DNA of 63,775 nucleotides, filler included, from Vannella sp. (taxonomy: Eukaryota), in assembly GCA_023345925.1 (NCBI GenBank). It is 6 parts of 6 records of this genome, joined end to end, with 100 filler letters (N's around TTAATTAATTAA, not from the genome) between each part and the next. Parts side by side here need not be neighbours in the genome. Positions count along the whole stretch, not along the records: positions 55,172 to 63,775 come from JAJQQN010001180.1; 5 more parts are not named here. One strand, 5' to 3'. A program made the position numbers and the translations under genes. Under the pieces are notes generated by a model. The model was not told the origin of the DNA and did no database searches. It saw only the letters and a program-made list of their open reading frames with translations. Shown one piece after another: positions 3,261 through 59,864 of this stretch; the first letter of the stretch is position 1; the number at the start of each line of letters is the position of its first letter.

Positions 3261-3475
3261 GGCAGAGCAGCGAGAGAAAAAAGGGTTCGGGAGAGAAACC
3301 GCAACGAAAATTTCCGTAATTATTCCAAGTCCACCCAACATCAAAAGAATGAAATCAGCGATGTTTAGTAGCCAAAAAATTCTTTCTGAGGCGATGGAAT
3401 CAGAACCAGATCACTTCCCAGCTTTTTTTGTTTGGTTCCCTTTGCTGCTCATTCTTTCTCTTCCCTGCCCGAAAC

Positions 3476-6400
3476 ATGAGCCCAACCCCGGACCCAGGAA
3501 AACAAAAAACAAGGAAGATACGGAATGTGCATGCGTATGTGGTAGGCAAACGATCTATCTCACTCCACGAGGCAGCATCAGAAGGAAACCTATCTCTCCT
3601 CCAGGGCATCCTCTCTGCACTTGATGAGGATCGCCAGTTCCTCATCAATGAGAAGTGTGGAAAGGGACTTACACCCCTTCATTATTCCTGCATATCAGGA
3701 TCTCTGGAGTGCGTGAAGCATCTCACAGAAAGGAATGCCGACCACTCTGCTGTCAACTTGAAGGGGAGGACCGCCTTCCACCTTGCCATTCAGCATGGAA
3801 GTATTGAGATCGTCAACTATTTGGTGCAATGCAATGAGAAGCTCAAGCTCCCTCTTCAATTGGACGACCGCAAAGGGCTCCTTCCCATCCATTTTGCAGC
3901 GAAGAGCGGTTGCTTGAAAGTGTACAACCTCATCCATGACTTGGATCCAAGCCAATGCACCAAAACCACTCGTGATGGACAGAACGTCATTCATCTTGCG
4001 TGTGAGAAGGGACACTTTGCCCTTGTTCAGCAGCTTCTTGAGAGTTGGGATGTTCAGTATCAGAACCCGCCAATACCCTCACAGAGTTCTACCGATGCAG
4101 GAAATACCCTTAATGCAACTCGAGAGTCTCCATACAAGTATCCCCAGAACCGTCCTGACTCACGCGGCAACAGTCTGCTCCACTTCGCTGCCTTTAGTGG
4201 CAACCTGGAACTCTACACCTTTATTGAGAAACACCGCGAGTCAGCTTCACTCCTTACCAACCGAAACAGCTATGGACATGTCCCAATATTCGAAGCAGCC
4301 ATCTCGGGAAACCTGGAACTGATTAAGTATATTCTTGAGCAGCACCCTGAAGCCGCAAACGAGATTTCAAACGAAGGTAGTACACCTCTCTTTGCATCTT
4401 TGAGAGGTGGTGCTGAGCTTGAAGTGGTCAAACACCTCTTTTCCTTACAAATCAATCATCATCACGTGGACGAAGCAGGGAGGAATATGTTTCACCATGC
4501 GGCCAGTGGCTCCACCGTTTCTGTTCTTAGCTATCTGGAAAAGGAGGTGGAGAAAAGCTCCGAGATGATGACTTCTCTGACAGGCGATAACCAGAGTATT
4601 CTGCATTTCGCGATGGAATCCTCTGACGACACCTTGATTCGCTGGCTATTAGAAGACTCTCCCTGTTCTGAAAGAACAGTCAGCCTGCAAGGGCTTATCT
4701 CCCATGTTGACAATAATTCCTACTCCTTGATTCATGCTGCTTGCCTGACAGGAAACCTCCCAGCTTTGAAGTATCTGATGGAGAAACATAGGAACACCTT
4801 CAATTTGACTAGAGACATGGAACAAGTGCCTTACTCTTGCCTTGTCCAACAGCACAACATTCATATCCTACAATACCTCTTAGCAATTGAAGAGATCCGC
4901 GAAAGTAGGAGCCACAAGGCACTCATTCACAATCTTGCATCATGCCGCGATGAAGAATACTTCCGTCAAACGGTCCATGATCTGAAGCTCGATATCAATG
5001 AGCGGGATAGCAGAGGATTTATTGCAGCCCATTTCGCTGCTCTTAATGGCAACTATCTTGTTCTCAAGGTACTACTAGATGAGCCCGGTGCAAATGTAGC
5101 TGCTAAGTCAGCGGACGGGTTTACTCTTCTTCATTGCGCCTCTGAGGGCGGCAATCTTTCCATTGTCAAGGACCTTGTGGAGAAACACTTTCCCCAAAAT
5201 CTCGACTGTCCCTTAGAAGACGGTACTACACCACTGGCCCTGGCTGTCAAGGAGTGCAATAGCGATGTTGTGGAATATTTGATCAAGAATGGAGCCGATG
5301 TGAACGCTGTGACCGCCAATCAGGTCTCTGTACTTCATCTTGCTTGTGCAAATGGATACACACACCCTTGGATAAGAGTGGTAAGTGCTTTCTCTCATTT
5401 AAGATGTGTCATATACTAACAATCTGGCTGAGTAGAAGGCAATTATTGAGGAGTTGTTGCATGCAGGAGCTTGGAGGAGTCTTCGAGTCGAAGCGACATG
5501 GGGAGGCGGCAGCTCTGATACTCCTTTTGAATTTGCTTCAAACAGATTGATCTGCAACTTGCTTGCAAAGCACGATCCCTCCTTGGAAGTAGAAAAGATC
5601 TTTATTCCAAGATCTTCTATTTCCAAGTACATCACGTCAGTTCTTCACCAGTTGCTTTGCTCTGTATCTAATTGTTTTGAGTTTAGAGATGACTATAGTT
5701 GCGGGCAAGGCGGATACTCTCGAGTCTATAAAGGCTACTTGCATGGCACTCCTGTGGCTATCAAGTGCCTCACGCTGGAGTCACCCGATCAAGAGTATCT
5801 CTTCAGACTGGAAGTGGGGATCATGTCTTTGATTCGTCATCCTAACATCTGCGCGTTGATGGGTGCATCAATTGAGAAGGACTCGTACTGTCTGATTATG
5901 GAGTACATTCCCAAAACGTTGGAATCTGTCATTGACGCCTTGGATTTGGATTTCACCTCACTCCTCAATTATGCGATTGATACATCTCGAGGCATGCTTT
6001 GGCTGCACAAACAGTAAGCTCCTCATTCTTAACTTCTGCATTATCTCACCACATTTAAAGGCAACCAGTTATCCTCCACCGGGACCTCAAAGCAGACAAC
6101 GTCCTCATTGATAATGGACGAGCAAAAGTGTCTGACTTTGGTCTTTCAGCTCTATTTGATCCATTGACAAAACAATTGGTTGTGAGAAAGAATGTCAAAC
6201 TCTACCATAGAACAGCTCCCGAGGAAGTGCGAAAGAGGCAAGAGTACTCTATCCAATCTGACATCTATTCATTTGGTTGCTGCTTGTTTCACATGTATAC
6301 AATGGAGCCCTTTGATAACCAGAAGTCTCTGAGCCAATCATCCAAACTCAAAGAAGTTATCCAGAGGTGCACCGCTTGGTTTCCTAATGTTCGATACCAA

Positions 6401-6589
6401 TCTTTTGAAGAGATTCTCGACATTCTCAACGAAATAGTGGCCAATCCAGCCCTCTTCGAGTCAGAAAGTCGCACGAGAGACTCTTGTGAAGTCCTTGTCC
6501 CCCGACTCAAGGAAGAAAGTTCTGCAACCCCCAAACCGGGCGAATGCAATGATGAACAGAACAATCATGGTTATACCACCAATTTCTGA
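3476..6589 (+). CDS. Ankyrin-repeat protein kinase (many ANK repeats plus TKL-like kinase domain), several introns
   Basis: Repeated GxTPLHxA-type motifs; kinase motifs GQGGYSRVY, VAIK, HRDLKADNVL (~6077), DFG. Confidence 0.9.
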
Positions 6590-6695
6590 CCATGATAAAC
6601 AACGCCATTTACTATTTGATGCGCAAAGAGTCATTCAGTCTGGTCCGTTCTCATTCCATTCCATTTCCATTCTCAGTTCCCTCCTTCATTTGTTA

Positions 6696-25334: not shown

Positions 25335-25645
25335 GACTCTCAAGCACCAAAAAAAAGGATCATTGCTTCGATGACATCTGTGTCTCCCGACGAAAATTTC
25401 CGGATGNNNNNNNNNNNNNNNNNNNNNNNNNNNNNNNNNNNNNNNNNNNNTTAATTAATTAANNNNNNNNNNNNNNNNNNNNNNNNNNNNNNNNNNNNNN
25501 NNNNNNGTGTCGAAATCGGTCCCAGCCAGAAGGATATTTGGCTGGACCGATTCTGGGCAGAGCAAGTTTTCTCCCGGTCAACAAGAAAAAAAAGTTTAGT
25601 TTTTAGGGTTTAGGGTTTTGAAAAAAGTTTAGTCTTTAGGTGGAC

Positions 25646-27503
25646 ATGACGATCGACAGCCACGCTCTGGAGGAGAAGTTGGGCAAAAAGAGTTACGAGG
25701 ACCTCTTCAAGTTGGTTTCTCAGCTTAAGAGAAGGTTAGTGGAGGTGTGAAAGGGACTGGGAGTGGTGTTGATGAGGGAACAGGGAGATCCTCGGCTCCT
25801 ACTCTGTTTCTCTCGCTGTCGCGCAGTTTTATCGCACTTTGGCGGCGAAGGCGCCCTGGAAGACACCTGAAGAAGCTATTTCTGTTATTCACTTGCTCGG
25901 TAGCATCTTCACGAAAGCTCAGTCCATCGAACTGTGCCTGGGGAACATCACTCGCCGCGTCCTCTTCTTTATTCGCGAAGCCCACGCGCATGTGATGAAG
26001 CTAGACGCCCCAAAGAAGAAGTTGACATTGGACTTTCTTTTGGCAAGCCAAGAGGCTGCTCCCACCGGCGAGCAGCGAGTGGAGTTCTCGAGTGGGTCTT
26101 TCGCTTTCCTTCTCATCTTCGGTAGCGCTTACTGACGAGTGGGGGATGGTGTAGAAGTCAAAACCCTTGTATTAGATGGGATCAACATCCTTCTGGAGGA
26201 GCTTAACGGCGTAAACCAGAACATCTGCGACATGGCTGTCGATCACATCCATTCAAAGTGCGTAGACCTCTCTCCTATGCTCCGCAGATCGTCTTTATGT
26301 ATCCTAAACCCTGGTTAGTGAGATCATCATGACATACGGGTGTTCAAACACTGTGGTGAGCTTCCTCAAGGAGGCAGGGCGCAAACGCAACTTCCAAGTC
26401 GTCGTTGCTGAGGCTGGTAGGTCAAAGCGTCGGACAAGATATCTGTAAAGCTAACCGACCTTCAAGCACCACTCTTCCGCGGCAAACAAACTGCCAAACA
26501 GCTCGCAGAGGCCAAAATTGACACGACATTGATTGCCGATTCCGCAGTGTTCTGCATGATGTCCCGCGTGAACAAGGTCATTGTTGGCACCAATGCAGTT
26601 CTTGCTAATGGAGGACTCTTGGCTGTATCAGGAGTACGAATGCTTGCAGAGGCAGCAAAATACCATTCGGTTCCTTTTGTGGTCATCTCGGGCATGTACA
26701 AGCTCTCTCCAGTCTATCCAAACGGCAAGAACTTTGCGAATGACATGAGCTCCCCTGGAAACATCATCTCCTTTGAGGAGCGTAAGTCACTTCGCAGGTG
26801 TCGTCACGTTCCCATCTTAATTGGGCAAAAGTGGACAGAATCTGCAAGGACAACCCTTCTGGAGTCGACGTTTTGAATCCAAGCTTAGATTATATCCCTC
26901 CTGAGCTTGTCAGCCTGTACCTAACGAACAAGTGAGCCAAAATGGTATCCTGTTTCTTGAGTGACTTACAATTATGTTCAGCGGGGCCCACAGTCCTTGT
27001 GACATCTACCAGATGCTGGCAGAGTACTACAGTCTCTCAGATTACACTTTTGATTCGTTTGACGAGGATCTCTTGCACTTGCAGAAGTTATTGAAGCTTC
27101 CCCGTGACAAAGTGGAAGACTCTCTCATCTCCTTCCTGGTGGACAGGCCCTCCTTTGATGTCAACCAAAAAGTGGTTCGTCCTTCTGTTCGTCTCTTCTC
27201 ACCACCTCAACCCCTTCCAGGATGACCAAAGCCTGCTAGAGTATGCAAGTGAAGGGAACCTAGTAGAACTTGCTGAATTTCTGCTCGGCCGGGAGGAGGT
27301 TGACCTTTCAACCGGAGTAAGATACTTTAATGTCCTTTAGGGGAAGGCTAATGACCTTTTCCCAGATCCAAATGAGAATTGCCTGTCAAAACGAACACAA
27401 GGAAATCGCCTGTTTGCTCTTAGCTCGCCCCAGCATGGTTCTCGACGAAGACGTGTCAAGAGACTATGCAGAATTCATAGAGCAGATCAAGAGAGCTCCA
27501 TAG
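25646..27503 (+). CDS. EIF2B2: eIF2B beta subunit with a C-terminal ankyrin-like extension, many introns
   Basis: GNITRRVLFFIRE, IADSAVFCMMSRVNKVIVGT, YKLSP, NPSLDYIPPELVSL; frame continues into ANK-like exons up to TAG 27501-27503. Confidence 0.85.
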
Positions 27504-51410: not shown

Positions 51411-54400
51411 TTATGGAGCAAGAGTCTCCGCTTGTAACCAGTTAAACTTGTTATCAAAAGGTTTCTGTGCAGGGCTTTTGGTTCGATAAACAGAGTATAT
51501 ATCCCGGACGTGCTGAGGCATTTCAATGGAGTCCAGAGAGTCTTCTGAAACTCCAGAGGCGATGGCTTCAGTGCGATTGTGCGCCAAACGGTGGAACAAT
51601 TGTTCCACCAAGTAGCGGCTGGAATTGGGGAATCCAGTTCTCCCTACGGAGGTCAAGGAAGTGTTTTTCTCCAATGCCTGATCCAAGCAGGCCAGCCCTG
51701 CATCTTCGATTCCGTTGTTGATAAGGATCAGAGTCCGAAGGGTGTTGTTCTGGCCGAGGAAGCAAGCCAACGTCTTTGCGCTTTCATCAGTAAGGCGATT
51801 ACCAATCTCCTTCACCGCCCAGGTGGCCTTTGGGAAGCCCAAATCCAGCATCTTCAATGGGTGCTTTGATTGGCTCAATCCCTGTATCAACGCCTCCACC
51901 CCCGAATCGCTAATCCGGTTGGAGGCCAATGACAAACGTTCCAAGTTCTTATTCGTACCAAAGCAGTTGCTGAGAATGCGGCAACCTTCATCTCCGAGCT
52001 GATTGATTCCAAGGAAGAGAGATTGAAGGGGAGAGCCCTCATTTGCTAAGTAATCTGCAAAGATCTTAGCAGAAACAGGAGTGAGCCCATTTGTGTTTAA
52101 ATAGAGGTGTCGCAAAGTAGTGTTGCTCTTCAGTCCATCCACAAGGTGCTGCACTCCCTCGTCTCTTATTCCACAATTGTCCAGATCAATGACTCGAATA
52201 GCAGTGTTCGTCCGCAGCATTTGAGCGACGTGAAGTGCCCCAACAGGTGACAGAGGGTTTCTTTTCAGCCATAATGCTGTGACACTCTGCTTGTAAGCAA
52301 GTGCCTCGCACACCTGCTTAATCCCTACACCCGAGATATCGTTCCCTGCGATATACCAAGTGTCCATGTTAGGTACAGCGTCAGTCCGAATAGCTTCTGC
52401 AATAGCTTCCGCTCCGCCGTTTCCGACAATGTTGTTTCCAAGGAGGAGTCGCTTCACTTGCTCATTCCCTCGCATTGACTGGAGCAAAGGACAGATGCCT
52501 TTGGGGCCTACAACCTGTTTACAAAGGTCCAATCGACCGTCAGGGACGATTGTTCCTCGGTCAAACTGGGTTTGCTCCTCTGGTCTCTGATTCAAGCCGA
52601 GCCAATCTAGTAATGGGCTCAGTTGCTCTAAAGTACAAGGTACCACAGGCTCTGGACGAGGATTCAACACCTCACTCGAAGTAGGTACTTTCAGCATTTC
52701 CTTCCATCCGTCTTCAGTGACTCGCCCACGCTGCACCCGAAGGCGGTGTTGATTCTCCTGGTGATCAATGAAACTCTTTGAAGCGCTGCGCCGGAGCTTG
52801 CAGATGGACGACAATAGCAAGCGGAAGCGGTCATAGCAAACCTTCTTCGTGTTCTTCAGAGCATCGCCAGAAGGATCTTGCAGAGGATCATACCCTTCAG
52901 GAATGCGCAGTGGGTTGAGTCCCCTGGCAATCAGCCGGGCTATACCGTGTGCTTTCCCAAGTTGCGTTTGTGCCCGCGGAGCTTCTTCAGCGCATTTGCT
53001 TGGCCACAGGCCCTCTTCCATCAGTTGAGCGACAGAAGCACTTAAATAGTGATTATTCTCTTTCAAAGCAGCGACGCGCGATTGATCTTCCCTCAGTTGA
53101 CGGACAAAGAGAGTTACAATCGCCTCAAGCATTGTTTGTTTACGCCCCTGGACGGAAACGGCGTCCACTTCATCCACAACATCAAGGAGAGTCAACAGAT
53201 CTCTCCAAGATCCCACTTCAGCAACGTACTCGAGTAAACTTTGCACCCCTTCGCAGACCACGAGCGCTGCCAACAGAAAGTAGAAGAATAGTTTGCCCTC
53301 CTCCCTCTGACCTTGCTTCGCGGTACGAAGAGACCAAGTCAAGGCCAAAAGATCCCCCGAGATAATCTCTTCTGGGACAATCTGCACCTGTTCTCTGTCC
53401 ATGAATTCCTTCATCCAATGGAAGACGTCATCGAATGTTGTTTGATGAGCGTGAAGGGACTTCCACCTGGCATCACTGTGAAGCTCAGTCTGAATAGTGG
53501 TTTGGAGCCCAATCGGTTTTCCTGGGCGCGAGGCAAAGAGCTTCTCTTTGACACCGATAATCGGAGAAGAATTCAATGGTGAACCATCAATGGCGCTACT
53601 GAAGTTGCGACTCTTCTCCTCAGCAAATTGCACAACAAAGGAGGCAAACTCATTCAGAGGCCACTTGTTCGGCGCTAAGTGCCCCCCTTCATGTCGATGA
53701 AGCTCTGCAGGAGGATTTTCAAAGCAAGCTGCAAGAGCCTCCGTGCGCTGAGGCTCTACTTGTTGGTCAGCTATGCCGATAATGTGGATTGAGGGGACAT
53801 TCTGGATTGCTCCAGGTTGAAGTAAACCACTGTAACGAGAGTCCCTCACTGGGAAACCAGAGATGTTAATGGAAAACCGGAACTTAATGTTCCGAAGCTG
53901 CCTTGCAGAAAGAAGTCCAGTTAATGCTGCCCCTTGGGAGAATCCCAAGACACCATCAAAAGGGCCCTCTTTCCGAAAGACATCATCAACATAGGCGAGG
54001 GTCTCTTCAAGGCCTTCATAGTGTACGCTTCCATCCTCCATTTCGACAGTACGCCACCAACACAATGAATCTCTGGAAGAACTATTCTTCTCTGTAGAGT
54101 GAGGCCCATCCAAGAACACAATATCCGCGTAATCTTTGAGAGCAAGGCGAAGGCGCTTCGTTCTGTTTCTCAAGAAGACTCCAGTTTGCGTCCAGCCATG
54201 GAAAGCCAGAATCCGCAGCTTTTGGGGAGCTTCGTGATGCTCCTCACTGGCTTGCTTCTTCTTAATGCGCTCTGCTTTGAAGGCTTTGGTCTTGACCGCA
54301 CTATTAGACACACTGTGTGTCTCAATCACTCGGTCAAGGAAGAGAAGTTGGTTATTCCGACTTTGGAAATGTCTCTCCTCCAAAGTACTGACCCGCTGGA

Positions 54401-54917
54401 GCCAGTCATTCCGATGAGGGTAGCGACCAAATCTCTTGAGAGCGTCGATGTTCTCTTGGTAGTGAAGAAGCCCATTGGAGAGGAACTTCTCTGCCTTCCC
54501 CGGTTCTGCCAAAGAAACAAGTGTGGCAAGACGCTCGGAGGCTTGTTGGAGCATCGTTAGGTCCTCAGAGTGGTAGAATGGCTCTAACAAGAAGAACTGA
54601 TGGAGCAAAGGAAGTTCTCCTGCCTCTGGAGTGAAGGCAAAGCGAGTGGCAACTTGCTTGGCCAGAGCATCTCCCTCAAACATGGATGCCCCAGAGTACA
54701 GCTTTCGGGGCAGTTGGTCCAGTAAGATGACAACGCACAGCGCATGGTTGATACCAGCGATGGTGGCCTCTTCTGAGATCGTTGCCTTGATGAATGGTTC
54801 AAAAGCCCACAACTCCTTGTTGCAGACCGCGCTTCCCTCTGGTCGGTGGCGGGACCACCACAGCGCAGTGTTAGGTGCACCATCCCCTCTGAACCATAGG
54901 TCCAATAACGCCTCCAT
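51411..54917 (-). CDS. Intronless multidomain protein: DUF924, FSH1 serine hydrolase, DUF2828/TROVE-like segment, RI-type LRRs
   Basis: ILLDQLPR..HSED..RFGRYPHRN; FHGWTQ..GFSQG..D..GGH; GSWRDLL..FVRQLRED..APR; DGRLDLCKQ followed by 28-aa LRRs. Confidence 0.85.
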   Translation of the reverse strand: MEALLDLWFRGDGAPNTALWWSRHRPEGSAVCNKELWAFEPFIKATISEEATIAGINHALCVVILLDQLPRKLYSGASMFEGDALAKQVATRFAFTPEAGELPLLHQFFLLEPFYHSEDLTMLQQASERLATLVSLAEPGKAEKFLSNGLLHYQENIDALKRFGRYPHRNDWLQRVSTLEERHFQSRNNQLLFLDRVIETHSVSNSAVKTKAFKAERIKKKQASEEHHEAPQKLRILAFHGWTQTGVFLRNRTKRLRLALKDYADIVFLDGPHSTEKNSSSRDSLCWWRTVEMEDGSVHYEGLEETLAYVDDVFRKEGPFDGVLGFSQGAALTGLLSARQLRNIKFRFSINISGFPVRDSRYSGLLQPGAIQNVPSIHIIGIADQQVEPQRTEALAACFENPPAELHRHEGGHLAPNKWPLNEFASFVVQFAEEKSRNFSSAIDGSPLNSSPIIGVKEKLFASRPGKPIGLQTTIQTELHSDARWKSLHAHQTTFDDVFHWMKEFMDREQVQIVPEEIISGDLLALTWSLRTAKQGQREEGKLFFYFLLAALVVCEGVQSLLEYVAEVGSWRDLLTLLDVVDEVDAVSVQGRKQTMLEAIVTLFVRQLREDQSRVAALKENNHYLSASVAQLMEEGLWPSKCAEEAPRAQTQLGKAHGIARLIARGLNPLRIPEGYDPLQDPSGDALKNTKKVCYDRFRLLLSSICKLRRSASKSFIDHQENQHRLRVQRGRVTEDGWKEMLKVPTSSEVLNPRPEPVVPCTLEQLSPLLDWLGLNQRPEEQTQFDRGTIVPDGRLDLCKQVVGPKGICPLLQSMRGNEQVKRLLLGNNIVGNGGAEAIAEAIRTDAVPNMDTWYIAGNDISGVGIKQVCEALAYKQSVTALWLKRNPLSPVGALHVAQMLRTNTAIRVIDLDNCGIRDEGVQHLVDGLKSNTTLRHLYLNTNGLTPVSAKIFADYLANEGSPLQSLFLGINQLGDEGCRILSNCFGTNKNLERLSLASNRISDSGVEALIQGLSQSKHPLKMLDLGFPKATWAVKEIGNRLTDESAKTLACFLGQNNTLRTLILINNGIEDAGLACLDQALEKNTSLTSVGRTGFPNSSRYLVEQLFHRLAHNRTEAIASGVSEDSLDSIEMPQHVRDIYSVYRTKSPAQKPFDNKFNWLQAETLAP

Positions 54918-55445
54918 TAGCAAAGTGATCCAAAAAGATCAAACCCAATTAATCCCCCGAGAGAAACTGAGAAAATTCCCGGAACCACCCAAAAACCCCC
55001 TCAATCAATAGAATCCCAATTGCCGTGCCATGTTCGAAATTATTTCTCACGTGCCCTTCGACTGAAAGCGGNNNNNNNNNNNNNNNNNNNNNNNNNNNNN
55101 NNNNNNNNNNNNNNNTTAATTAATTAANNNNNNNNNNNNNNNNNNNNNNNNNNNNNNNNNNNNNNNNNNNNTCAAAGAGTTCGAGTCGCAAACAATCTGA
55201 GCGAGCCAAGCACAGACTCTTTTTCTAATCTGTGAAAATGGGACATTCACTTTGTCGGCATCTGCCCTTCTGAAGTCAAGACGCTCGCAAAGCGATTCCA
55301 CGTGCACACGTGCCAAAGGTTGGCCGGAGATGACCCTTCACATCAGCACACGGCTACTCCAAACATCTCTTTCTCCCCAGGTATATCTGACATTCGCACT
55401 GTTGAGGAGTGTATTTGCTCAAAGGAAGAAGGCGTTCATGGCTTC

Positions 55446-56811
55446 CTACTGAGTGACATCGTGCATGGCAGTGGCAAGGTACTGGACGTTGGAGGAGTTG
55501 AGCCCAGCCACGCTAACGCGCCCATTGCGGGTCATGTAAATGTGATACTCATTGCGAAGAGTGTCCACCTGTTCGGGAGTCAGTCCAGTGAAGCAGAACA
55601 TGCCAATCTGGTTGATGATGTGGCTCCAGTCCCGGGTAGAGCCAGCATCCTTGAGGCTCTGCACCAAAGTAGAACGCATCTCAATGATACGACCGGACAT
55701 GTCCTTCACCTCACCCAACCACTGCTCCTTGAGCACGCTATCATTCAGAATCTCCGAAACGATACGCGCACCAAAGATGGGTGGGTTGGAGTACATGGGA
55801 CGGATGAGGGAGTTCAATTGACTGCGCACAATGACTGCCTGTCTCTCGCTCTCGGTAACGAACGTCACAGCGCCCACGCGCTCCCCGTACAGTCCAAAGT
55901 TCTTTGCAAAGGACTGGCAGACACCAATGAGGTGGCCGTCTTGCACGAACTTGCGAACAGCGTAGGCGTCCTTCTGACAGTCGCCTGAGGCGAAGCCTTG
56001 GTAGGCGAGGTCGAACAAGGCAAAGTGCTCCTTGTCCTTAGTGAGCTGAGAGAGCTCGTCCCACTGCTCTGGAGTAGGGTCTACTCCTGTGGGGTTGTGA
56101 GCACACGCGTGGTAGAGGATAATGGAGCCAGCAGGGGCGTCCTTGATGTCAGTCTTGAGGCCTTCAAAGTCCAGGCCACAAGTGTTGGCATTGTAGTAGC
56201 GATAGTTGCGTACTTGAAGGCCAGCGTCCTTGAAGAGGGGAATGTGGTTAGCCCACGTGGGGGAAGGCAAGTAAACCGCTGCGTCCGGTTGGAAACGAGC
56301 GAGGAACTCTCCTGCAACACGTAGTGCTCCAGTTCCACTGATGGCTTGCGCAGTGACGTTCTAAAGGGACGAGGTGAGGACTCGCCAATGGGAGGACAAC
56401 GAGGGTCACGCACTCGCTTTGACGCAAGGACTTCCGATTCAGCTCCAAAGGCGAGTTCAGCAGACACTTTGATCAGTTGAGGGACTCCGCCAATGCCAGC
56501 GTACTCATGGTCCATCTTGTAGATGCGCTCAGAGGCCTGTGGGCAGTCAGAAAGCCAGTTAGACCACAAGGAAAGCGGAATAAAGCGTATCTTACAGTCT
56601 GAACACACTTGAGGATGTAGGGCTTACCCTTGTCGTCACGGTAAGCACCAACACCAAGGCTGACCTTCCGAGGATCCGTATCAGCCACGAAAGCCTGAGT
56701 CAGCCCCAGAATGGGATCAGCTGGAGCTTCCTCCAAATGATTCCAAGCGTTAAACGCCATAGCACGGCGAAGAACCGTCGAGGGAACACAACGAGAGACA
56801 GAGCGAAGCAT
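55446..56811 (-). CDS. GOT2: Mitochondrial aspartate aminotransferase, 2 introns
   Basis: Presequence, [37 protein letters not shown]. Confidence 0.96.
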
Positions 56812-56904
56812 GTTCCAAAGCGGAGGCGGAGAGCAACTGACCGCAAAGCACTTCTTTCTTGTTATCACAAAAAAAAGGGCGAAAGGATAGAAATTGGCAT
56901 TTTA

Positions 56905-58649
56905 ATGCTTTCTGGAAGGTTTGGTTAGACTGGCTCATTTTTTCACGTCATCTGACCGTCTGGCGCTTGCACACAGGAAGGCTCTCGATTCCCGCAAGCT
57001 ATCCAAAGTGAAGGCCTTCTTGAAGGCTCATCCGGATATGCTCAACGATCCTTGTAACGTGCGTTTCCTTCCTCCGCTTCAGTCTCCTTCGTTCTTTCTT
57101 TCCTCTTTCCTTCCTCCTTGGAAGAGGCGGGAGGGGTGAACGATTGAAATGGAGGGTGCTTATATACTCACTTGATTGGGATGTGCAGTGGGTACGTCGA
57201 AGGTGAAAGGAGAAGGGAAGAGAAGGAGGGAGCTCCTTACGAGACGGGACGCCTTTAGCAAGTAGGTCCCCTCCATGGGAAATCAGAATGATTGATTCAC
57301 CACAGGGAATGGTTTTAGCCTGTGAGTGACTCCACGCAAAGAAGGATCCGTTAAGGGAGCTGAGGAAAGGGGATTTATGTAGAATGTAAGTCACTGGCTT
57401 TGTCCCGGAGTCAGGTTCTTCGCTGATGAGTAATGGTAGATGGTATGTGTCTGAATTGGAATTTTCATGGGTTGATCAAAGGAGCCGTCTGACCGAATCA
57501 CAGAGGGTGAGAAGATGACCCACTCGGAGACCGATGAGAGACGATGACTGACCCACCCAATACGAATCATGCAGACCGTATGAAGTCCATCTCTAATTCT
57601 CCTTAGAACTAACTCGGGACCCTAGTTAGTAGGGAAAAGGCCTTTTCAGGGAACCTGTCTCACCAAAAGTGTCTTTTAGGACGTAGGTTCATCCCCCCTC
57701 TTAAGTGAGAATAGCGCGCATGAAACTCACTGAAATGAAATGCAGAGAGTAAGCCTGACAATGTGCACATTGAAGCGAAGGAGTCTCAAAGGGAAGGGAA
57801 TTTAGTTGGTAAGTGCATGAGCGTTTCCTGTTGTTAAAACTCAACAAAGGACGGGAAAGGATGTGAGGGTTTCTCTTGAAGAAATCCAAAAAACTCAATC
57901 ACCCTTTTTAGGACGTAAGTGGTGGGATTCTCTATTTATTCTCACTGTCCCAAATCCTTTCTTTGCACATTCTCACTTTGCTCAGAACTTCCTCACCTAC
58001 GCCTCTTTCTATGGCCTAAGTGACATAGTCAAGTATTTGCTTTCCCGGCGCACCATTGACGTACACAGCACGGTAAATTTCATCCTTTTTGCGGAGTCTC
58101 GAAGATTGGCATCTCACTGGTTCTTTAGATGGTGAGGAATGAGATCCCTTCAGAAGAAAATAGAGGTTTCTGGTAGTTTGTACTCTCGCAAATTACTGTG
58201 GACCTTCAACGGGTACTTTTCTCACAGCAACAAAACGTTTTAGTGGGTAAGTTTCTGGTGATGATGACGGCTGACTCATCGGTTTGATTAAAGCTGGTGA
58301 GTTGCGAGGAGTGAACAGGAAAAGCGACTCAATCGCAAGAGATATAGACGGCTTTGGATTGGGCTGCTGAGCAAGGGAATGGTCAGGCTATCGAGTTGCT
58401 TGTGGCTGCAAATGGTAGATGCAACAAAGTACGGGTCTGGTTGCTTAAAAGTAGGCCATTCTCACTCAAAAGTAACTTAGGAACGACCCGCCTTCCAAAA
58501 GAAAGTGGATGAATACTTCTTTTACAAATCCCTGGAGCCAGAATCATTCGAACCCATCAAACCCCCAAAAAGGTATGAATGACCCCAATCTCTCATGCTA
58601 AAGGTTAGGAGTTCTTACCCCAATTGATAGCTCTTGCAATGTGTCCTAA
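56905..58649 (+). CDS. Small ankyrin-repeat protein (up to ~141 aa) with two arrays of 3-nt microexons and a C-terminal CaaX-like motif
   Basis: Exons 56905-56918, 56977-57058, 13 x 3 nt (57189-57914), 57986-58072 (NFLTYASFYGLSDIVKYLL), 4 x 3 nt (58129-58296), 58348-58428 (TALDWAAEQGNGQAIELLV), 58481-58572, 58631-58649 (SCNVS*); first exon and last acceptor are least certain. Confidence 0.82.
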
Positions 58650-58915
58650 AATGCAGATGAATGGCGTTGTCGGCTGACTTCCAGAATACATTTCCGATTG
58701 AGCGAGCTGCAGGGCCAAATCTGAAGGTGGCGTTTGACCCGTGACGGTTTTCTTTCTTTTTCGTCGTTCTAACGCCTGGAACGGTCTCTGCTTCTTGTCA
58801 ATAACCCTATGCGGCTGTTAATTAGTTGCACCGCACACAGCTTCCTCAGACTCTATCTCTCGAATGCGCACTACAACAATGCTGTTCTGCTTCTCCGGTA
58901 GCAGTCCAGTGTGCC

Positions 58916-59864
58916 TATGACGGAGTCTCCAGGAACGGAGACGTGTCTCTACTGTGGATTGCCGAAGATGGGAGAGCGGGCTGCAAAGCAGAAAGTAGGG
59001 AGTTAATGAAATTTGGTTGCGGATCGACCGGCGGCGTGGTTCATTCCGAATGAGGGAAGATGCGCGCGAGAAGACTCCCTCAAAAAGTGATTCGGACGGC
59101 TTCTGAGTCCGAGTTGTCCAGCAGTGTTCGATCCAAAGACCAGCAGGCCGCCTTCCTGTGGGAACGCCAATGAATGGCTCCTGCCTGCAACCAGCGCACA
59201 AAGGGTTGAGAGTGGGTTGGGTACCGGCGGAATGGTCGCCATCCCCAATTGCCCTTCTCCACCCCATCCCCAGACACCGCCGTTCTCATCGAGAGAGCGT
59301 CCCATTGCAGTTGTCTCCAGAGGAGAAGATACCTCCTTGCGAGTCGACGAGAATCACTCCATAATGAAAGCAAGTCACCTTGATAAGTGGAGGGAAGCCT
59401 TCCACTCGTTGGGGAAGAGAATGCGCCCAAGAGAGACCGGTCCTGCTCGTGCCAGCAGCCACCAAAGCGATATAAGGCAGTTCTTGAACTTGCTGAAAGG
59501 TGGGAGATGAAGAAGAGGACCAAGAGCGACCAGCCTCCCACACACCACCCTCCACATCAAGAACGAGGGAGTGTTCCTCTCCCCAGTCCACCTGAACAGG
59601 CTGAGGACCACTCCAGTCCACCTCCACTGCTTCCAGCTGGTTGTTCGTGTGTCCGAGACCGAGTTGGCCTTGTCTGTTGTACCCAAAAGCCCAAAGGCCT
59701 CCTTCGTGGGAGAGGAGGAGCGTGTAGTCACCAAAGGGCATCCCAATGAAGGGCTAGGAAAGGGAAAGTCAAGAGGATCGAAAGAGATCACTTTTGCGCG
59801 GCAAATGGAGACGGCCACGCTTGGGGAGCTGCTGGTGGGTTGATTCCTTGAGGAGATGAAGCAT
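58916..59864 (-). pseudogene. RCC1-repeat gene, frameshifted and internally deleted
   Basis: RCC1 motifs (FGYNRQGQLG, GEEHSL, AGRSHSL, FGSNTAGQLG) split over frames; break near 59290-59305 has no intron. Confidence 0.65.

Follow-up and report, generated by a model that had tools for sequence, protein, structure and literature searches.

The closest described system is that of the Tuber melanosporum NACHT-ANK genes, which are reported to carry alternatively spliced, codon-sized (3-bp) mini-exons, "dozens" or "tens" of them per gene (Iotti et al. 2012, as cited in PMC4986451, PMC13449251, PMC10197012 and PMC9815663). Very short exons are also documented in other lineages: Schistosoma micro-exon genes (MEGs) consist for the most part of symmetric exons of up to 36 bp, whose skipping preserves the frame and varies the protein, and encode host-exposed, schistosome-specific proteins (PMC8293314); Drosophila sowah has FlyBase-annotated 3-nt exons (TAT and GGC) with neighbours of 6 and 12 nt (PMC8042270, supplementary Table 4); and 26 Coprinopsis genes together contain 27 exons of 3 nt (PMC12230235). 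Among the matches listed for open-access text, tandem codon-sized exons are described for the Tuber case only, and no microexons in amoebae were found among the amoeba papers listed. An earlier, sequence-only reading of the locus described here had known of no system with tandem one-codon exons, a claim that the Tuber genes, as the citing papers describe them, do not support. What is new is the lineage, the minimal ankyrin-plus-CaaX architecture, the placement of two arrays exactly in two hairpins (one of them over-supplied) and the fully diverged spacers; the codon-exon array design itself is already known from Tuber.

The locus lies in a window of 63,775 nt (the whole stretch of DNA that was analysed, filler included) from Vannella sp. 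and is a small stand-alone ankyrin-repeat gene. Our gene model comprises six constant exons (56905-58649) and 17 putative codon exons of 3 nt, all symmetric and in phase 0, and yields a protein of 125 aa without and 141 aa with the codon exons. Direct checking confirmed the coordinates, codons, donors and acceptors of the 13 triplets in the first ankyrin loop that the sequence-only reading had reported; a second array of four units in the next ankyrin loop (58129-58296) was absent from that reading. The features of the gene are as follows, the array 1 units being supported by the splice-pattern check.

56905 to 56918, + strand: predicted exon 1; sole ATG between the aminotransferase start and exon 2, presumed start
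56977 to 57058, + strand: constant exon 2; N-cap-like ankyrin helix pair and first 4 residues of loop 1; 3' end in phase 0
57065 to 57119, + strand: 55-nt pyrimidine tract (93%) at the 5' end of the double-length first intron (130 nt)
57189 to 57191, + strand: array 1 codon exon 1, TGG (W)
57259 to 57261, + strand: array 1 codon exon 2, CAA (Q)
57319 to 57321, + strand: array 1 codon exon 3, CCT (P)
57383 to 57385, + strand: array 1 codon exon 4, AAT (N)
57440 to 57442, + strand: array 1 codon exon 5, ATG (M)
57504 to 57506, + strand: array 1 codon exon 6, AGG (R)
57575 to 57577, + strand: array 1 codon exon 7, ACC (T)
57626 to 57628, + strand: array 1 codon exon 8, TTA (L)
57680 to 57682, + strand: array 1 codon exon 9, GAC (D)
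57746 to 57748, + strand: array 1 codon exon 10, AGA (R)
57806 to 57808, + strand: array 1 codon exon 11, TTG (L)
57860 to 57862, + strand: array 1 codon exon 12, GAT (D)
57912 to 57914, + strand: array 1 codon exon 13, GAC (D)
57986 to 58072, + strand: constant exon 3; 29-aa ankyrin repeat from Pfam Ank position 4; phase 0 at both ends
58129 to 58131, + strand: array 2 codon exon 1, ATG (M); splice pattern, chain scan, shuffles
58177 to 58179, + strand: array 2 codon exon 2, TTT (F); donor GTACTC, the weakest
58244 to 58246, + strand: array 2 codon exon 3, TGG (W); splice pattern, chain scan
58294 to 58296, + strand: array 2 codon exon 4, CTG (L); splice pattern, chain scan
58348 to 58428, + strand: constant exon 4; 27-aa ankyrin repeat from Pfam Ank position 4; E 0.014
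58481 to 58572, + strand: predicted constant exon 5; C-terminal segment, no family match
58631 to 58649, + strand: predicted last exon; ends C-N-V-S-stop; an acceptor at 58603 yields the same end

Like the Tuber NACHT-ANK genes, as the citing papers describe them, this is an ankyrin-repeat gene with tandem 3-bp exons that are frame-neutral and proposed to diversify a recognition surface through alternative splicing. It differs in that it is small, has no NACHT domain, has a CaaX-like end, belongs to a host that one gene tree places outside the fungi, and has, at the DNA level, 13 + 4 units rather than tens, with no family of paralogues seen; lacking both a NACHT domain and a fungal host, it is in our view not a member of the Tuber family. 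Short symmetric exons are also shared with the Schistosoma MEGs, whereas here they account for 17 of 141 codons, restricted to two loops of a globular ankyrin scaffold in a non-animal host; sowah has two 3-nt exons as opposed to the array of 13 found here.

A mitochondrial-type aspartate aminotransferase gene lies 92 nt upstream in divergent (head-to-head) orientation, which leaves no space for a further domain upstream, and no NACHT match was found in the exons of the ankyrin gene or in nearby frames. The best named matches of this aminotransferase are mostly from Amoebozoa. In its tree (35 rows, namely the window sequence, 23 named and 11 further of the 120 listed matches; midpoint-rooted, one gene, limited sampling), the window sequence falls in a clade with Clydonella (98/95), which we take to be a vannellid, and six fungi form a clade of their own (100/99); the tree probably places the host in Amoebozoa and sets it firmly outside the fungi sampled.

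The ankyrin assignment of the constant exons is of graded strength. Exon 2 was judged ankyrin-like by eye alone, Pfam giving no Ank match, and the donor of exon 1 (GTTTGG) is weak. Exon 3, which has a strong, pyrimidine-rich acceptor, matches Pfam Ank (E 0.016) and ankyrin clusters in the Atlas (0.95), and the exon 4 frame gave 88 phmmer matches at E<=0.001 against 1.84 billion proteins, generic multi-repeat proteins of which the 11 scanned were all ankyrin proteins. No orthologue or paralogue was found by exon-alignment, exon-3-probe or exon-4 phmmer searches: the exon alignment returned 191 candidates, including 2 generic ankyrin proteins, without an orthologue among them, and an exact 29-nt exon 3 probe had 0 matches in metagenome contigs. 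The searches brought up no sowah protein, and none of the 11 best short or few-stretch matches scanned had a SOWAH-specific Pfam family. The C-terminal exon had no Atlas match above 0.78, the overlapping minus-strand frames at 57002-57475 and 56476-56901 had no Pfam match, and Rfam had none in 56800-59500. By the CaaX rule for prenylation motifs, the C-N-V-S end is CaaX-like and may be prenylated.

Thirteen AG-NNN-GT units lie between exon 2 and exon 3 (57059-57985), with 4 CAG, 8 TAG and 1 AAG acceptors. The pattern [CTA]AG-n-GT[AG]NG matches this interval 13 times at n=3, never at n=0, 1, 4-9 or 11, and 1-2 times each at n=2, 10, 12 and 13; conversely, 13 of its 17 GTRNG sites are preceded by an acceptor exactly 3 nt upstream. 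Chance expectation for array 1 is 0.32 +- 0.56 (maximum 5), and 0 of 5000 dinucleotide shuffles of the 927 nt reached 13. Under a looser GTR pattern array 2 shows 4 units against 0.39 expected, a count matched by 0 of 5000 shuffles. Across the whole 64-kb window, on both strands and at exon lengths of 1-12, no chain of more than two units was found beyond arrays 1 and 2. The sequence-only reading had further noted that the triplets are free of stops and mostly preceded by branch-like sites. No stop is indeed found among the 17, a result that is not significant alone ((61/64)^17 = 0.44), and branch-like sites are present in 15 of the 17 introns upstream of a triplet, which is weak evidence because the search motif is loose. 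A suspected R-L-D repeat among the triplets was rejected (9 same-residue pairs versus 8.4 expected, with flanks no more similar).

Whether these units are exons can be approached independently of the splice signals, through the register of the ankyrin fold. The triplets had been assigned to the ankyrin hairpin loop before the TPLH motif, and this was borne out for both arrays: exons 3 and 4 both open with the T of TPLH (Pfam Ank position 4), which puts each array in the hairpin preceding a repeat. In an ankyrin reference of 90 proteins (107 pairs for the distance that separates the helix-2 valine from the following T, 121 repeats for repeat length), the natural distance is 19 in 69 of the 107 pairs and 20 in 31, with a minimum of 18; 104 fall at 18-22, and the three at 32-40 are probably missed repeats. 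The modal repeat length is 33 (75 of 121). Without the triplets the distance is 15 in loop 2 and 17 in loop 1, both below the natural minimum. All four array 2 triplets bring loop 2 to a distance of 19, a 33-aa repeat and a gap-free profile alignment, and this restoration is good evidence for exon status; loop 1 reaches 19-20 with two or three triplets and 30 with all 13. Taking loop lengths and splice signals together, the exonic character proposed by the sequence-only reading is the most likely interpretation, and we regard it as highly probable.

The alternative is that either array is a single long intron, excised at once or in steps, with the units as relics or recursive splice points. 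In its favour, exon 3 has the strongest acceptor of the gene, the avoidance of stops is not significant in this gene alone, and spliceosomes generally define very short exons poorly. It would, however, leave both hairpins (15 and 17) shorter than every one of the 107 natural pairs, and would call for introns of 927 and 275 nt, far in excess of the 47-67 nt norm. Recursive splice sites are moreover zero-length AG/GT junctions, of which 57059-57985 contains 0 strong examples, and the class of arrays described below avoids stops. We consider this alternative very improbable.

Apart from the first (130 nt), the array spacers measure 45-71 nt and carry the same donor types as ordinary introns (47-67 nt), of which we collected 15: 3 in the constant part of the gene, and 12 in other genes, where they were picked by hand and by joining frames. 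The spacer range of 48-71 nt given by the sequence-only reading thus stands for 13 array 1 spacers and fails for the first (57059-57188). Similarity among the spacers is at shuffle level (20.4 versus 19.4 +- 0.9), which indicates that the splice signals were kept after the spacers diverged. A minisatellite was considered and rejected, the spacers being mutually unlike; units 4 and 11 form one pair that exceeds 99 of 100 shuffle maxima. Pyrimidines make up 46% of the 15 introns between two codon exons versus 63% of the 15 ordinary introns (p=0.0002), and 42% versus 60% of their last 15 nt (p=0.009), whereas the intron before exon 3 is 71% pyrimidine. Purine-shifted introns with strong donors, followed by a strong tract before exon 3, would be the anatomy of skippable exons.

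No other 55-mer of the whole window, on either strand, is as rich in pyrimidines as the 55-nt tract at 57065-57119, which lies directly after a donor, not before an acceptor. The tract is a possible splicing-control element, its pairing with the array introns being compositional only; it could be bound by a PTB-like protein or pair with the purine-rich introns. One specific version of such control resembles Dscam, with the tract docking onto one purine-rich array intron, looping out the earlier units and so setting where inclusion starts. The tract is unique in the window, its pairing energies with introns 2, 4 and 11 (-45.6, -32.6 and -28.9 kcal/mol) compare with a mean of -10.9 for ordinary introns, and in the predicted fold its partners are the introns flanking unit 1; yet shuffled targets or a shuffled tract pair equally well (sum over 12 introns, p=0.10 and 0.46), folding of the whole region gives z=+0.5, and no selector motif recurs among the array introns. 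Since the pairing is no better than in shuffles, docking is unsupported and in our judgement very unlikely; it is in any case a sub-case of variable inclusion, not an independent explanation.

Comparable arrays occur in metagenome contigs. A scan with a generic three-unit pattern gave at least 121 stretches; of the 120 loci taken from them, 5 were set aside as second loci of a contig and 115 were kept. A locus was counted as an array if it had at least five units, a median spacer of 55-80 nt and a branch motif in at least 60% of introns, codons being disregarded. Among the matches listed, 32 of the 115 loci carry such branch-site arrays, with 5-47 detected units, and these hold 3 stops in 631 triplets versus 30-39 expected (units within one array not being independent), compared with 106 stops in 595 triplets in the 55 other chains of at least five units, which are mostly satellite-like. 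None of 13 control loci from viral contigs had a branch-site array. The introns of the arrays are, we presume from their look, of fungal type. The arrays share with the ankyrin gene AG-NNN-GT units, intron-sized spacing, branch sites and stop avoidance, but their spacers are mostly recent tandem duplicates (with median nearest-neighbour identities of mostly 0.7-0.98, versus 0.54 in the ankyrin gene), and one family has relatives that apparently include most units. That at least 32 contigs bear arrays suggests that gene callers overlook a whole class of genes.

The contexts of these arrays vary: the array comes after a NACHT frame in L074 and after an MMR_HSR1-type GTPase domain in L092, and in L104 there is an ankyrin frame nearby. 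In L074 (2076-5996) a 537-aa NACHT frame leads directly into 32 codon exons whose introns are near-identical, and no repeat domain was seen in the following 900 nt; L049 (5-3790) has more than 47 successive codon exons across ~3.7 kb. Ten loci (L017, L018, L022, L035, L041, L053, L056, L073, L077 and L092) belong to a family of MMR_HSR1-type GTPases with fungal-type introns and C-terminal arrays of up to ~40 codon exons; the family is neither ankyrin nor NLR, and no description of it was found in the literature searched. Four intron-free relatives (P0212-P0214 and P0216), which are different genes from the ankyrin gene, probably fungal, and presumably RNA-derived given their missing introns, have, in place of the array, low-complexity stretches of 38, 49, 44 and 35 residues, as against 29-32 small exons in genomic relatives; in L035, the genomic relative of P0212, 32 small exons encode 34 residues, compared with the 38 of P0212, and the opening residues are shared. 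If RNA-derived, these intron-free relatives show that near-complete inclusion is possible for long series of 3-nt exons; they are silent on the skipping of some.

We hypothesize that the 17 three-base units of the ankyrin gene act as one-codon exons spelling two hairpin loops. In loop 2, all or nearly all four units are probably included, since the usual repeat length is thereby restored. In loop 1, strong donors and weak, purine-rich acceptors would compete against the strong acceptor of exon 3, so that the 13 triplets may be included in varying ordered subsets, giving many variants from one gene; we put this at an even chance, and at slightly better than even once the docking sub-case is counted in. 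The oversupply of loop 1, which needs two or three residues and has 13, supports mixing. The sequence-only reading had proposed a choice of two or three triplets out of 13, and loop 1 does attain natural length with that number; the proposal is partly contradicted, because array 2 fits complete inclusion and the intron-free GTPase relatives carry whole-array residue counts, and subset size in loop 1 need not be held to two or three. Further points against the hypothesis are that profile scores are nearly flat over subset sizes (37-42 bits for loop 2, means of 10-11 bits for loop 1), that no triplet codes for the glycine usual in the ankyrin hairpin consensus, and that the searches gave no orthologue or paralogue. 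The 286 triples and 8192 subsets calculated earlier are correct as counts, but R, L and D recur among the triplets, so that the distinct peptides number only 144 and 5056, respectively.

A less probable, though substantial, competitor is constitutive inclusion, in which all 17 codon exons are always spliced in, giving a normal loop 2 and a loop 1 longer by 10-11 residues; any diversity would then be genomic in origin, with alleles or species gaining, losing or mutating units, and would not stem from splicing. Serial splicing is feasible because each spacer has the length of a normal intron and a strong donor, and annotated 3-nt exons exist in Drosophila sowah (PMC8042270). All four array 2 units together yield the modal repeat length, and the intron-free fungal-type relatives hold about as many residues as the arrays have units. 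Diversification at the DNA level can be seen in the closely related fungal-type loci L035 and L077, which share a near-identical spacer by their last units while 4 of their last 6 codons differ, and in most of eight duplicated arrays exon positions vary more than flanking intron positions. Constitutive inclusion, however, implies a loop 1 distance of 30, unseen among the 107 natural pairs, leaves the purine shift of the array introns and the pyrimidine tract unexplained, and departs from the Tuber ankyrin case, which is reported to be alternatively spliced. By analogy, the rarity of exon skipping outside animals (PMC6142364) and the dominance of intron retention in Acanthamoeba (PMC12404691) would count against subset splicing.

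Ankyrin hairpins contact ligands. Under variable inclusion in loop 1, the product would be a binder tethered to the membrane through its CaaX-like end and bearing a variable surface, similar to Tuber NACHT-ANK proteins and lacking their NLR core; we infer the splicing, skipping, prenylation and binding role of the gene from its DNA. If subsets are spliced, a single 1.7-kb gene would supply a DARPin-like repertoire in a lineage presumed to skip exons only rarely, and would be the smallest and most tractable example of the Tuber mechanism. The broadest reading is that an amoeba independently evolved a spliceosome-made binder library, in which a tract-steered, membrane-tethered ankyrin gene combines up to 5056 loop 1 peptides with up to 16 from loop 2 to recognise prey, symbionts or giant viruses, and that such arrays are a widespread, largely unannotated device of microbial eukaryotes; we offer this as speculation that is rather unlikely to hold in full. 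Even if inclusion is constitutive, 13 successive 3-nt exons probe how the spliceosome handles exons too short to define.

Several other features of the window were observed. Runs of N at ~25408-25506 and ~55072-55171, with short TTAATTAA-type filler mid-run, mark the window as joined, with linkage across them not assured; beside the former, at 25604-25640, a few TTTAGGG-like repeats lie upstream of an eIF2B-type gene. A short frame at 27182-27420 (+) appears by eye to be one ankyrin repeat with a downstream phase-0 intron and has no Pfam match. At 3353-6600 (+), a long ankyrin array (688-aa frame) is followed by a kinase domain and has no microexon chain, and at 51411-54938 (-) an intronless 1175-aa frame unites DUF924, an FSH1 serine hydrolase and leucine-rich repeats.
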